Positions 43,668 through 46,602 of a stretch of 64,000 nt of DNA are shown one piece after another (the first letter of the stretch is position 1; the number at the start of each line of letters is the position of its first letter). Where the stretch lies: the NCBI RefSeq assembly GCF_044324875.1, contig NZ_CP172185.1; one strand, given 5' to 3'. Below the pieces are notes generated by a model. The model did not search any database. It was given only the letters and a program-made list of their open reading frames with translations, and had not been told where the DNA came from. Source of the stretch: Escherichia coli (GTDB taxonomy: Bacteria > Pseudomonadota > Gammaproteobacteria > Enterobacterales > Enterobacteriaceae). The position numbers and the translations under genes were made by a program.

Positions 43668-45170
43668 ATGAATATCAGAAAACTGTTTTGTCCGGGAAAT
43701 ATACCCCGGATTTTATTGTTTTTGTTCTTTTTTGTTGTTTCTACAATAGCCACAATTGCATGCGGATACACTGAGAGGAATGCAACAGGAAATGTGCTGC
43801 TTCTGTTTCTCCTTCTGCTCCTTGCACACAGAAATACCCTCACATCCATTACAGCTCTGTTATTTCTGTTCTGTTGTGCACTGTATGCGCCTGCCGGTAT
43901 GACGTACGGTAAAATCAACAACAGTTTTATTGTCGCGTTGTTGCAGACCACAACTGATGAGGCAGCGGAGTTTACCGGGATGATTCCTGTTTATCATTTT
44001 CTGGTCAGTGCCGCGATTCTGGTATTCATGGTGATTTTCTGGCGAACACACCACCGCGGTCACCGTAACTGGCTGGCACTGCTGCTGTTCGTATTATGCT
44101 CAGTAAACAGCTGGCCGTTGCGGATGGTTAAAGGAACTGTTGTGGGGACAACTGACACATTGCGTGAAATGCAGCATTATAAACAACTGAGTCAGCACGG
44201 GGCTGACAACTGGAAAATCCTGCCGGGAACACCGTTATATGACACGATTGTTATTGTCACTGGTGAGAGTGTGCGCAGGGATTATATGTCGGTATATGGC
44301 TATCCCGTGCCAACCACGCCGTGGCTGAATACAGCTCCCGGTTTATTTATTGACGGCTATACATCGGCAGCAGCCAGTACCGTACCTTCCCTGAGCCGGA
44401 CACTGATTTATGACTATGAGCAGAACCCTGACTCCGGCAACAACGTGGTGGCGCTGGCAGCAAAAGCAGGATACAGCACATGGTGGATATCCAATCAGGG
44501 AAAGCTGGGGGAGCATGATACACGCATCTCTGTTATTGCTTCTGATGCGGAGCATACCGTTTTCCTCAAGAAAGGCAGCTTTGCTTCCCGTAAAACGGAT
44601 GACATGTTGTTGTTACAGGAAACAGAACGTGCACTGGCGGATAAATCCTCTCCGAAGGTGATATTCCTGCACATGATTGGCTCTCATCCGAATCCGTGTG
44701 ACCGACTTAACTCCTGGCCGAATCATTACCTGGAGCAGTATCCCCGAAAGGTTGCCTGTTACCTCGCCAGCATCAGTAAACTGGATAACTTTCTCGGTCA
44801 GCTTGATGGTATCCTTCGCCGGCATTCCCGTCATTTCGTCATGCTTTACTTTTCTGACCATGGGCTGTCGGTCAGCGACAGTGCTAATCCTGTTCATCAT
44901 GATGGTCATGTGCAGGGAGGCTACAGCGTTCCCCTGATTATTACCGCCAGTGACATCACGTCTCATCAGTCCGTCAGCAGAAAAATCAGTGCCCGTCATT
45001 TCGCAGGTATTTTTCAGTGGCTGACCGGCATTCGTACTGAAAATATACCGCCATTCAATCCGCTGACAGACGAAGATAATGAACCCGTTATGGTTTTTAA
45101 CGGAGAGAGGAATGTACTGGCAGACAGTCTGAAACCACAGCCTCTGATTCTTCCGGTCAAGGGAAAATAA
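43668..45170 (+). CDS. Phosphoethanolamine-transferase-like membrane protein (sulfatase/alkaline-phosphatase superfamily, EptA/YhbX/OpgE-like)
   Basis: 500 aa; N-terminal TM helices followed by a periplasmic sulfatase-fold domain (…TIVIVTGESVRRDYMSVYGY…, …HMIGSHPNP…). Confidence 0.65.
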   Translation: MNIRKLFCPGNIPRILLFLFFFVVSTIATIACGYTERNATGNVLLLFLLLLLAHRNTLTSITALLFLFCCALYAPAGMTYGKINNSFIVALLQTTTDEAAEFTGMIPVYHFLVSAAILVFMVIFWRTHHRGHRNWLALLLFVLCSVNSWPLRMVKGTVVGTTDTLREMQHYKQLSQHGADNWKILPGTPLYDTIVIVTGESVRRDYMSVYGYPVPTTPWLNTAPGLFIDGYTSAAASTVPSLSRTLIYDYEQNPDSGNNVVALAAKAGYSTWWISNQGKLGEHDTRISVIASDAEHTVFLKKGSFASRKTDDMLLLQETERALADKSSPKVIFLHMIGSHPNPCDRLNSWPNHYLEQYPRKVACYLASISKLDNFLGQLDGILRRHSRHFVMLYFSDHGLSVSDSANPVHHDGHVQGGYSVPLIITASDITSHQSVSRKISARHFAGIFQWLTGIRTENIPPFNPLTDEDNEPVMVFNGERNVLADSLKPQPLILPVKGK

Positions 45171-45528
45171 GCGTAATGTTCATCACCAGATTATGTACGA
45201 TGAGTTTTCCACTGTTTATAGCAATTATCTTGCTAATAACCAGACAGGAGTAACCAGACCAACCGAAAACACCGGGGAGGTGATTACCCGCTGGCAGAGG
45301 AAATCCGGTTTTTTTGATGTCAGCCATAACGTGTTTGACAATAAAGCATTATGAAAGGGTGTTAATGAGTCCATGGGATAATTCATAAAAATAATTTACT
45401 GTGTTATCCTTTTCAAAAGAAATATTCAGAAGATAACCCCTGGCTGACAACCAGGGGAAGGGGACATTAACAGTGTTATTATTGGTGGATAAATTATTAC
45501 TTGTGTGCAGGATACACTAATGCAATAT

Positions 45529-46602
45529 CTACTGATACTGTATGCCAGTATGTTTCATGCCTGCCGCTGAAAACGGCAATATCCAGGGCCAGACATATTC
45601 ACCATTCATATTTCTGCATTTCTGTACAATTTTCTCAGAAAGCGTCTCATCAATTCTTTCACGCAACTTCTCCTGCTGTCTTAAAATACTTTCGTATATT
45701 TCGAAATCATCTTCCTGCATCAGCATTTCGGCGCATTTAATGATTTCTGCCCGTTCATGCAGCACAGAGGAATGATTATAGAGCCAGTTTACAAACAGCA
45801 ATGCTTCCGGATATTGCCCCCATAACGGGTGGTATGTGGCATAATAATCTTCGGCAGTATCCGGACCGCCTGAAAAGTTATGCCATACAGCAAGTGGAAA
45901 TGGATGCAGATTTCCGCACAGTATTTCTGCGATGTAAGTATTTGCCGCAAAGCCGCGACGAAATGCAGTTGCAGCTTTTACCAGTTCCCCATTAAGAAAA
46001 TGCAGAAGGCCGAGTTCATACCAGTAAGGTGAAAATTCATCTGCATGTTCCTGCAGTATATGGCGTGCCTGTTCATGAGCGCCAGTGCGTAACAGTTCCG
46101 GTCCCAGTAGCCAGCGTGTACCATGATTATCTTCGGGATTGTAATCCAGTATTTTTTCAATGAGCATGATGGCATCCTGATGACGCTGTAAATGTGCATT
46201 TGCCAGGATTGCCGCATAGAGGGTACGAAGAAAAGGTCGGTTGTCAGGATGTATCCAGATGATTCTGCCACTGAAACCTTCAGGGATAAGACGATTGCCA
46301 ACTGCCAGCCCTTTAAGGGCAGCATTCAGCGCCTTACGCGGGGCATTCTGCTCCAGAAATACGTATGCCAAGTGAGCGTGTACATCAATAAAGTCATTCT
46401 CCTGTCGGGCAAGGCGCCTGAGTTTGTTGATGTAACTTGTTTCGCTGATTTCATCCGCATCGTATGCATCAATCAGTTCTTCAAACTCATCCAGCAACGA
46501 GCCAAACCCGGTTTCCGGAAATATGAAACAGCCCTGGTTATCGTTCACTTCAAAGCGTAATTTGCCAGTCATATTCTGAACCTGTAAAAAAGGATGGACC
46601 AT
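45529..46602 (-). CDS. Hypothetical protein (357 aa), integrase-adjacent cargo
   Basis: Long ORF with no motif I can assign; immediately downstream of the integrase on the same strand. Confidence 0.5.
   Translation of the reverse strand: MVHPFLQVQNMTGKLRFEVNDNQGCFIFPETGFGSLLDEFEELIDAYDADEISETSYINKLRRLARQENDFIDVHAHLAYVFLEQNAPRKALNAALKGLAVGNRLIPEGFSGRIIWIHPDNRPFLRTLYAAILANAHLQRHQDAIMLIEKILDYNPEDNHGTRWLLGPELLRTGAHEQARHILQEHADEFSPYWYELGLLHFLNGELVKAATAFRRGFAANTYIAEILCGNLHPFPLAVWHNFSGGPDTAEDYYATYHPLWGQYPEALLFVNWLYNHSSVLHERAEIIKCAEMLMQEDDFEIYESILRQQEKLRERIDETLSEKIVQKCRNMNGEYVWPWILPFSAAGMKHTGIQYQ

Follow-up and report, generated by a model that had tools for sequence, protein, structure and literature searches.

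A probable tRNA-Phe-proximal island module of Escherichia coli carrying an OpgE-like YjgX and the TPR protein SisA

The interval between positions 43,668 and 46,602 of the window (the whole 64,000-nt stretch of Escherichia coli DNA that was analysed) is, with a probability of roughly 0.78, part of a module that is conserved at the tRNA-proximal end of tRNA-Phe-type pathogenicity islands in E. coli and carries an OpgE-like YjgX and the cytoplasmic TPR protein SisA. The module would begin at the att end with a remnant of tRNA-Phe and continue with a P4-type integrase gene, sisA, yjgX (convergent with sisA) and the gene of an adhesin of the Hra/Hek/Hes family. Both cargo genes are already known: they are catalogued, occur very commonly in E. 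coli islands and stand in a published arrangement. Profile and structure searches on the two proteins, which the earlier note had proposed, led to a phosphoethanolamine transferase of the YjgX type and to a TPR protein of the ShiA/SisA family.

Gene content and distribution of the module

The 500-aa and 357-aa ORFs are confirmed as real genes rather than chance ORFs. In the ORF list, they stand convergently, directly downstream of the gene for a P4-type integrase; the integrase gene and the 357-aa ORF share one strand, with the integrase gene immediately ahead. The features of the module and its borders are as follows.

42753..43493, + strand: 246-aa outer-membrane beta-barrel protein (length counted from the RefSeq start), Hra/Hek/Hes/Tia adhesin family (Pfam OMP_b-brl 9e-21; position; literature)
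43668..45170, + strand: yjgX-type phosphoethanolamine transferase, 500 aa, intact, ATG start (Pfam Sulfatase 9.1e-37, EptA_B_N 4.3e-5; identity to K-12 yjgX)
45437..45457, - strand: terminator-like hairpin some 70 nt beyond the sisA stop, with a 9-pair stem including 6 G-C pairs (consensus scan only)
45529..46602, - strand: sisA/shiA-family TPR protein, predicted to be cytoplasmic; the mechanical ORF has an ATG start and 357 aa, and the gene of RefSeq and the literature is 45529-46572, 1,044 nt, 347 aa (identity to Q6KD66; AF2 model)
46828..48093, - strand: P4-type tyrosine integrase, 421 aa (NCBIfam PRK09692, 252 bits; 67% identity to K-12 IntB; RefSeq 'tyrosine-type recombinase/integrase')
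48256..48281: strong hairpin adjoining the tRNA-Phe remnant (hairpin scan)
48291..48313, - strand: remnant of the tRNA-Phe 3' end, 23 nt, an island att repeat (a single hit, 2 mismatches; 0 expected from shuffled sequence)

The tRNA-Phe remnant places the integrase at the att end of an island. In strain BH100, the corresponding position is occupied by an intact tRNA-Phe (pheV, beside yqgA-speC). A tRNA search found no intact tRNA in the window, and an Rfam scan of positions 38000-52000 gave no matches. The coordinates, the integrase and the remnant are all in line with the description of these genes as integrase-proximal island cargo, which had been given in the earlier note.

Many complete E. 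coli genomes carry the 6-kb module at 97-98% identity; there it adjoins tRNA-Phe and is annotated as integrase, TPR protein, phosphoethanolamine transferase and outer membrane protein. Among 5426 complete E. coli genomes, sisA-like DNA was found in 1961 and yjgX-like DNA in 2974; the two are present as an adjacent pair in 483. A PADLOC search returned no match for SisA, the transferase or the outer-membrane protein. With PHROGs, the transferase matched unnamed phage families only, the outer-membrane protein gave a weak Lom match, and SisA had no match.

The adhesin gene starts with GTG at 42777 in the ORF list and at 42753 in RefSeq, which names the protein at the same position in near-identical regions 'outer membrane protein'. 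Its adhesin family was assigned by position and literature and not by alignment to reference sequences.

YjgX and its candidate acceptors

The earlier note had already placed the 500-aa protein, as a membrane-bound enzyme like the phosphoethanolamine transferases, with EptA, YhbX and OpgE; the Sulfatase and EptA_B_N matches and the protein's architecture support its place in this superfamily. About five N-terminal membrane segments are predicted (hydrophobic segments within residues 6-154), followed by a C-terminal sulfatase-fold domain. Compared with the product of the K-12 yjgX pseudogene, the protein is 91% identical in residues 177-496 and 78% identical in residues 93-178. In an alignment with EptC, LptA and MCR-1, residues E200, T238, H340, D397, H398 and H411 fall on catalytic positions. 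Judged by this alignment, the catalytic set of the window protein (the Thr nucleophile together with the Glu, Asp-His and His metal ligands) is complete.

YjgX would be an inner-membrane enzyme with some five N-terminal helices and a periplasmic domain of the alkaline-phosphatase/sulfatase fold. By analogy with EptA, EptC, MCR-1 and OpgE, Thr238 is the likely nucleophile. The enzyme would take phosphoethanolamine from phosphatidylethanolamine, the presumed donor, with the aid of a metal site formed by E200, D397 and H398, and would pass it on to an acceptor facing the periplasm.

As for the acceptor, the view of the earlier note that it cannot be read from the sequence is shared here, and an identity of 31% to OpgE does not fix the specificity of YjgX. 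OpgE is the reciprocal best K-12 paralogue of YjgX (31% over 493 aa, 232 and 226 bits), followed by YhbX (104 bits), EptC (94 bits), EptB (56 bits) and EptA (45 bits). OpgE is the phosphoethanolamine transferase for osmoregulated periplasmic glucans (PMC3818809). Since no other characterised protein stands closer to YjgX along its whole length, the most likely acceptors of YjgX are osmoregulated periplasmic glucans or other glycans of the envelope, at somewhat less than even odds. The LPS core would be the next candidate, with a clearly smaller chance; lipid A seems rather unlikely, and a protein acceptor improbable. This kinship to OpgE makes the glucan acceptor concretely and cheaply testable.

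The earlier note had given weight to lipid A and polymyxin susceptibility. This emphasis is less likely to be right, as glucans or glycans other than lipid A appear the likelier acceptors. A transferase of lipid A (or of Kdo/heptose) that was acquired horizontally would lower the envelope charge and raise resistance to polymyxin and cationic peptides. YjgX belongs to the same superfamily with the full set of catalytic residues, it has a weak EptA_B_N match, and its top NCBIfam profile is CptA/EptC, a heptose-phosphate transferase. That profile was matched at 110 bits against a cut-off of 404, and YjgX falls far below the NCBIfam cut-offs of all EptA models (58 bits vs 561, 38 vs 660), of EptB (51 bits vs 493) and of MCR (36 bits for the best model vs about 1250). 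EptA and EptB are moreover the most distant of the K-12 paralogues, and yjgX is present in 27-55% of complete E. coli genomes. A literature search on yjgX and the transferase classes found no paper tying yjgX to polymyxin resistance; the same search found no biochemical data on YjgX. On balance, we consider a lipid A or Kdo/heptose transferase unlikely.

A relationship to the Shigella O-antigen transferase Lpt-O was rejected. Lpt-O was compared because its paper mentions homologues of 31-38% in E. coli, Pantoea and Erwinia; BLASTP against Lpt-O of pSFxv_2 gave a best E-value of 0.61.

The neighbourhood of yjgX raises another explanation, namely that YjgX and the adjacent adhesin form one adhesion/biofilm unit in which YjgX decorates the Hra/Hek/Hes protein or its surrounding glycan. 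The two genes follow each other on one strand with 175 nt between them, and at least 275 genomes keep both in the module. Superfamily members that modify proteins exist, namely PptA and C. jejuni EptC (PMC10525099), and the LAA deletion that abolished biofilm took both the adhesin and the transferase genes (PMC13340028). Against such a unit, yjgX-family genes stand without the adhesin gene in K-12, on IncI plasmids (52% identity) and as a chromosomal singleton in Enterobacter lignolyticus, and a promoter-like site and a hairpin separate the two genes in the window. A dedicated adhesion unit is quite improbable, and an acceptor among the glucans or other envelope glycans is still preferred. The adjacency of ompX and opgE in K-12 was considered as a parallel and put down, in all likelihood, to chance, since the two pairs differ in outer-membrane protein family and in gene orientation.

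The ShiA/SisA family: fold, distribution and function

By sequence identity, the 357-aa ORF encodes the named ShiA/SisA-family TPR protein and is an allele of the same gene as SisA/SisB and ShiA. The RefSeq start in near-identical regions is an internal Met that gives 347 aa, and 160 contigs on record encode exactly this 347-aa protein. It is 98% identical to Q6KD66 ('ShiA homolog'), its 90% cluster includes a UniRef member named 'ShiA-like protein', and it is 82% identical to the representative of the Shigella flexneri cluster. The last value is consistent with the published identity of 83.3% between SisA and ShiA (PMC13340028). The statements of the earlier note that the 357-aa ORF has no recognizable motif and is unassigned have therefore to be given up. 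The AF2 model and the identity to Q6KD66 make it a TPR protein of a family with published in vivo phenotypes, and the gene order int-sisA-transferase-hes has been described as LAA module I. This goes part of the way towards the refutation that the earlier note had itself set out, namely a match of the 357-aa protein to a well-described family.

The TPR signal is weak at the level of sequence (best Pfam match TPR_16, E 1.5e-3). The AF2 model (pLDDT 91.5) is an all-helical TPR solenoid, and all of its PDB matches are TPR proteins. In eukaryotes, the ribosome quality control complex has a TPR subunit, Rqc1/TCF25. To our knowledge, E. coli has no Listerin, ubiquitin or RqcH. Among solved folds, that of eukaryotic Rqc1/TCF25 (PDB 9ofv chain v) comes closest, a likeness that may or may not go beyond that of TPR proteins in general. 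The Pfam profile Tcf25 (PF04910) found no match in SisA at E <= 10, and matched only 1 of 51 and 2 of 18 relatives at E <= 1e-3. A link at the sequence level was rejected: two family profiles searched against PDB sequences gave generic TPR proteins only and no Rqc1.

Sequence prediction gave neither a membrane segment nor a signal peptide for SisA, and the family is predicted to be cytoplasmic. Its conservation extends along the entire protein, and 19 residues are invariant among proteobacteria, Verrucomicrobia and others. In the numbering of the 347-aa protein, N111-R112-P113, D148-N149-Q150 and W230-H231 form invariant patches, and the family alignment has a core of the form ENRPFLR...NPxDNQG. 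Rhizobium, Methylobacterium, Massilia, Verrucomicrobium and MAGs placed in Myxococcota and Acidobacteria have full-length homologues with 35-50% identity that keep the invariant motifs. At this level of identity, the family is thus found in bacteria living freely in soil and water.

A conserved partner gene was sought in 50 loci of ShiA homologues, whose 739 proteins were clustered. Besides the family itself, no cluster recurs in more than six loci; integrases occur in four and HipA-like genes in five. Ribosomal protein S21, suggestive as a partner given the Rqc1 fold, was also rejected: a paralogue immediately precedes the copy of Rhizobium rhizogenes, and no other locus has it. Domain fusions in longer homologues (PRiA4_ORF3 in two, DUF7713 in one, ABC_tran in one) were uninformative. 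That the family is predicted to be cytoplasmic, lacks a conserved partner gene, is widespread outside pathogens and has its closest solved fold in Rqc1/TCF25 are new observations. The fold, the location and the wide non-pathogen distribution are absent from the ShiA/SisA literature consulted, which gives infection phenotypes.

SisA would be soluble and cytoplasmic, a TPR solenoid whose groove is conserved. It most likely binds a partner protein or peptide inside the bacterium, as its fold class, groove and conserved residues suggest; no conserved neighbour gene points to the partner. The anti-inflammatory phenotypes of ShiA/SisA would then be downstream effects and not a direct action on host cells.

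These phenotypes are the main argument for a host-directed role. As cited in later papers (PMC13340028, PMC7545054, PMC5539235), through which the primary reports (Ingersoll 2003, 2006; Lloyd 2009) are quoted here at second hand, ShiA/SisA attenuates the inflammation caused by Shigella and UPEC: the inflammatory reaction to Shigella shiA mutants is stronger, and UPEC sisA/sisB suppress the early host response. Moreover, deletion of the hes-sisA region lowers the killing of Galleria larvae. SisA might on these grounds be a virulence effector whose evolved function is to act directly on host cells against innate inflammation. The lack of a signal peptide or membrane segment speaks against this, as do the full-length homologues in the genera and MAGs named above. 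The LAA deletion of the latest functional study also removed the transferase gene, hes and part of atoS together with sisA, and its phenotypes were credited to hes and sisA only (PMC13340028); they can therefore not be assigned to sisA. Direct action on the host as the evolved function is doubtful. The wide, host-independent spread of ShiA homologues argues for considering a function in the bacterial cell before a host-directed one. In practice, sisA serves as a virulence marker.

SisA might also be an accessory factor of the mobile element, involved in integration, excision, maintenance or counter-defence. This would explain why sisA always follows the integrase gene in E. coli islands, immediately downstream and on the same strand. 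The Morganella homologue is part of a Tn3-family element, its gene overlapping that of the resolvase, other homologues adjoin Fic, TIR, DruA, AbiE, HipA and type I R-M genes, and the PRiA4_ORF3 domain of the two fused homologues is plasmid-associated. An accessory role is nevertheless unlikely: the 50 loci hold no conserved neighbour, with few integrases or HipA-like genes, some copies lie among ordinary metabolic genes, and SisA has no PADLOC or PHROG match. The binding of a partner inside the bacterium remains the preferred proposal.

A bolder view may be sketched, which we hold only tentatively and think improbable as a whole. ShiA/SisA may be an ancient stand-alone cytoplasmic TPR protein of many phyla and mostly free-living species that shares a specific fold, possibly ancestry, with Rqc1/TCF25 and acts on a conserved bacterial target, with indirect anti-inflammatory phenotypes. 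Separately, part of the loss of biofilm, adhesion and virulence ascribed to LAA 'hes-sisA' may be due to the co-deleted OpgE-like YjgX.

Relation to known islands and proteins

The closest described system is module I of the LAA of LEE-negative STEC, pheV-int-sisA-transferase-hes, in which the TPR protein was equated with SisA and the beta-barrel protein with Hes (PMC13340028, 2026). The gene order is the same as in the window, and the distances agree within 10 bp: the adhesin stop lies 3,335 bp from the integrase and 4,798 bp from the tRNA-Phe remnant in the window, and the published hes distances are 3,342 and 4,805 bp. IS66 elements and a 1274-aa SPATE-type autotransporter further along are common to both; the comparison of order and distances covers module I. 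LAA has an intact pheV, whereas the window has the remnant, across which the island abuts a second island end with ParDE, DUF4942 and CbtA-type toxin genes. LAA is known from STEC, and the best genome match of the window module is a poultry isolate.

SisA/SisB of UPEC CFT073 and ShiA of the Shigella flexneri island SHI-2 belong to the same family (82-98% identity, the same 347-aa length) and are likewise encoded directly behind a P4-type integrase gene at the island end next to the tRNA. They show no substantive difference from the window protein. Rqc1/TCF25 is a candidate relative of SisA in fold; SisA itself has no Tcf25 profile match.

OpgE (YbiP) shares with YjgX the N-terminal membrane segments, the periplasmic sulfatase domain and 31% identity over nearly the full length. 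OpgE is a core gene, in contrast to the window yjgX, whose product is an island-borne paralogue and not an orthologue. The closest solved structure to YjgX by sequence is EptC/CptA, the heptose-I phosphate transferase (PDB 5zzu, E 8e-18). Its catalytic Glu, Thr and Asp-His align with those of YjgX, although the identity is only about 23-26%, in the catalytic domain alone, and the profile score is far under its cut-off.

Finally, the K-12 yjgX pseudogene (b4575, leuX-intB-...-yjgX), with 91% identity at the protein level, has the same convergent position to a P4-type integrase. The K-12 locus has an IS2 element where the window has sisA. Its yjgX is truncated at the 5' end and frameshifted, whereas the gene in the window is intact and keeps every catalytic residue.

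Layout of the locus and the att end

The earlier note had placed two ORFs next to a P4-type integrase, and the ORF list confirmed their coordinates and the integrase itself; the two ORFs are convergent.

Features of the integrase-proximal locus
43668-45170, plus strand: 500-aa ORF, yjgX-type transferase (ORF list)
45529-46602, minus strand: 357-aa ORF, sisA/shiA (ORF list)
46828-48093, minus strand: 421-aa integrase gene, directly upstream of the 357-aa ORF (ORF list)
48256-48281: strong hairpin beside the tRNA-Phe remnant
48291-48313, minus strand: 23-nt copy of the tRNA-Phe 3' end, 2 mismatches (0 expected by chance)
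48552-49129, minus strand: ParE/ParD-like genes, beyond the remnant
49198-50142, minus strand: DUF4942 gene, beyond the remnant
50161-51434: IS element, then CbtA/CbeA-type toxin-antitoxin genes

The integrase is 67% identical to K-12 IntB and scores 252 bits against the NCBIfam integrase domain. No intact tRNA was detected in the window by ARAGORN. In strain BH100, an intact pheV tRNA fills exactly the place of the remnant, next to yqgA-speC. The ParE/ParD, DUF4942 and CbtA-type genes to its right (48094-51500 region) are the end of another island. Since the remnant lies beside the integrase and another island ends beyond it, the integrase sits at the att end of its island, and the two islands are inserted in tandem. 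In related genomes, RefSeq annotates a pseudogene between yjgX and sisA (45157-45386, minus strand), a short frameshifted 'hypothetical protein'.

Elsewhere in the window, a YadA-like trimeric autotransporter adhesin of 533 aa is encoded at 5495-7096 (plus strand). At 9278-11808 (minus strand), a YaiO-family outer-membrane barrel and a PgaC-like family-2 glycosyltransferase are close neighbours and may form a small exopolysaccharide unit. Metabolic cargo at 13917-27596 includes a TRAP transporter permease, a four-gene ABC transporter, a ROK-family regulator and an AbgT-family transporter; the ATPase of the ABC transporter is similar to those of the aminoethylphosphonate type (PhnT2), although its 361 bits fall short of the cut-off. 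A 1274-aa autotransporter at 27908-31732 (plus strand), which the closest genome lists as 'S6 family peptidase' (SPATE), could be LesP of LAA, the pathogenicity island of LEE-negative STEC. On its flanks are IS66/IS21-type elements (32705-36504), which appear again at 61233-63651. The gene at 39458-41437 encodes a PhoX phosphatase bearing a Tat signal.

YjgX and its candidate acceptor

The 500-aa protein had been read as a sulfatase-fold membrane phosphoethanolamine transferase, and this assignment holds. Pfam Sulfatase matched residues 193-446 (9.1e-37) and EptA_B_N weakly matched residues 44-172 (4.3e-5), while a hydropathy scan gave about five hydrophobic segments within residues 6-154. The protein aligns with E. 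coli EptC (5zzu, E 8e-18), Neisseria LptA and MCR-1, and E200, T238, H340, D397, H398 and H411 stand opposite the metal ligands and Thr nucleophile of these enzymes. The catalytic set is intact, and the enzyme looks active. In the K-12 leuX region, the yjgX pseudogene product is 91% identical over residues 177-496 (tblastn). Like the window gene, K-12 yjgX is convergent to a P4-type integrase, but an IS2 element takes the place where sisA would be. This identity and the same layout identify the window gene, as judged from sequence, as an intact YjgX.

None of the curated NCBIfam cut-offs was reached by the protein (CptA 110 bits against 404, EptA 58 against 561, EptB 51 against 493, MCR models at most 36 against about 1250). 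In direct comparison with five K-12 paralogues, OpgE was the nearest (31% over 493 aa, 232 bits; reciprocal), followed by YhbX (104 bits), EptC (94), EptB (56) and EptA (45). OpgE decorates osmoregulated periplasmic glucans with phosphoethanolamine (PMC3818809). With 232 bits for OpgE against 45 for EptA, the previous emphasis on lipid A is unlikely to be right; as far as paralogy goes, a glucan or glycan is the likelier acceptor. We tentatively put a glucan or other glycan at about 40%. The LPS core is a less probable acceptor, lipid A an unlikely one and a protein more unlikely still. From family knowledge, phosphoethanolamine would be moved from phosphatidylethanolamine onto Thr238 and then to the periplasmic acceptor. 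Lpt-O, the Shigella O-antigen transferase, showed no kinship with it at the sequence level.

Relatives of YjgX are carried by IncI-type conjugative plasmids (52% identity), and another (39%) stands alone on the chromosome of Enterobacter lignolyticus; their operon contexts gave no hint of the acceptor. The plasmid paralogue, of 511 aa (7001-8536 at locus L010; plasmid matches H22-H27; 52% identity), is present on more than 100 conjugative plasmids of E. coli, flanked by a nuclease gene and hok copies, with exclusion/transfer genes nearby. In K-12 (L097, 850450-852597), opgE faces ompX, the gene of a small outer-membrane barrel, in convergent orientation, which echoes the adhesin-yjgX pair of the island. 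This likeness is probably a coincidence because the barrel families and gene orientations differ.

SisA and the ShiA family

The 357-aa ORF, previously described as unassigned and motif-free, gave only a weak best Pfam match (TPR_16, 1.5e-3) and no matches in PADLOC or PHROG. Database searching nevertheless returned a tight family of 335-347 aa, conserved over the full length; homologues and RefSeq begin at Met11 of the mechanical ORF. Across an alignment of 51 sequences, 19 positions are invariant and about 50 nearly so, with motifs including ENRPFLR, NPxDNQGxR, YIAEILCG and WH. AlphaFold2 on this alignment (pLDDT 91.5) modelled a helical repeat solenoid with a short-strand cap, a TPR fold. 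The top Foldseek match in AFDB was Q6KD66, 'ShiA homolog [Escherichia coli]' (98% identity), and further matches carry the names 'ShiA-like protein' and 'SHI-2 pathogenicity island protein'. The exact 347-aa sequence is recorded on 160 contigs, its cluster has a member named 'ShiA-like protein', and the Shigella flexneri cluster representative is 82% identical; the published identity of SisA and ShiA is 83.3% (PMC13340028). The named matches, the cluster naming and the Shigella representative therefore identify the product, by homology, as SisA/ShiA. Of the earlier reading, the transferase call is kept, and the lipid A emphasis and the 'unassigned' label are dropped.

According to second-hand accounts, SisA/ShiA attenuates inflammation in Shigella and UPEC (PMC13340028, PMC7545054, PMC5539235). 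SisA has neither a signal peptide nor a membrane segment and is predicted to be cytoplasmic. Its fold and conservation suggest that it acts within the bacterium by holding a partner in a conserved groove; the inflammation effect reported for it is then probably an indirect one.

The family is spread far beyond pathogens, across free-living bacteria. In the representative library, 243 clusters reach E < 1e-30; genomic copies are present in Rhizobium, Methylobacterium, Massilia, Sphingobium and Verrucomicrobium, and others in MAGs assigned to Myxococcota, Acidobacteria and further groups. ORFs were called in 50 ShiA-homologue loci and the 739 proteins clustered; there was no conserved partner gene, no neighbour recurring in more than 6 of the 50 loci (HipA-like genes in 5, integrases in 4). 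Contexts ranged from a Tn3-family element through Fic/helicase/DprA/type I R-M, AbiE/HipA/IS and Fic/TIR/DruA sets to plain metabolic surroundings. In Morganella morganii (L003, 3325-4901), the homologue (54% identity) lies within a Tn3-family transposon and shares 34 nt at its 3' end with the resolvase gene, which may mean that both are transcribed together. Two longer proteins from high-GC bacteria (P0323, P0331) are extended at the N-terminus by about 150 aa and bear a Cys-rich C-terminal segment (CRRRP...C..C...C.RC) which resembles a zinc ribbon. Two other members are fused to a plasmid-associated PRiA4_ORF3 domain.

Spread in E. coli and comparison with published islands

When 42500-48500 was compared by Megablast with 5,426 complete E. 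coli genomes, the entire module was recovered at 97-98% identity, with at least 80% of the query covered in 275 genomes. Matching modules are annotated as outer membrane protein, phosphoethanolamine transferase, tetratricopeptide repeat protein and tyrosine recombinase. sisA-like DNA was present in 1961 genomes and yjgX-like DNA in 2974 (1450 at a coverage of at least 80%). They stand side by side in 483, and genomes with only sisA or only yjgX exist too. The sisA-transferase linkage is specific to E. coli islands. The arrangement is already published, and the feature is known and very common; its lasting value lies in the mechanisms of YjgX and SisA and in the possible Rqc1/TCF25-like fold of the ShiA family.

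A 2026 study equated the PGAP 'tetratricopeptide repeat protein' (1,044 bp) with SisA and the beta-barrel protein with Hes, and placed a phosphoethanolamine transferase between their genes (PMC13340028). The LAA deletion whose phenotypes were credited there to hes and sisA also took out the transferase and part of atoS (PMC13340028); the lost biofilm formation, adhesion and killing of larvae are therefore not yet assignable to one gene. For the subtilase island, an integrase, a sulfatase-type gene, tia and shiA are listed together in a review (PMC7545054). In LAA, ORF2 after the integrase is sisA, and the hes stop codon lies 3,342 bp from the integrase and 4,805 bp from pheV (PMC5539235); the matching distances in the window are 3,335 bp to the integrase and 4,798 bp to the tRNA-Phe remnant.
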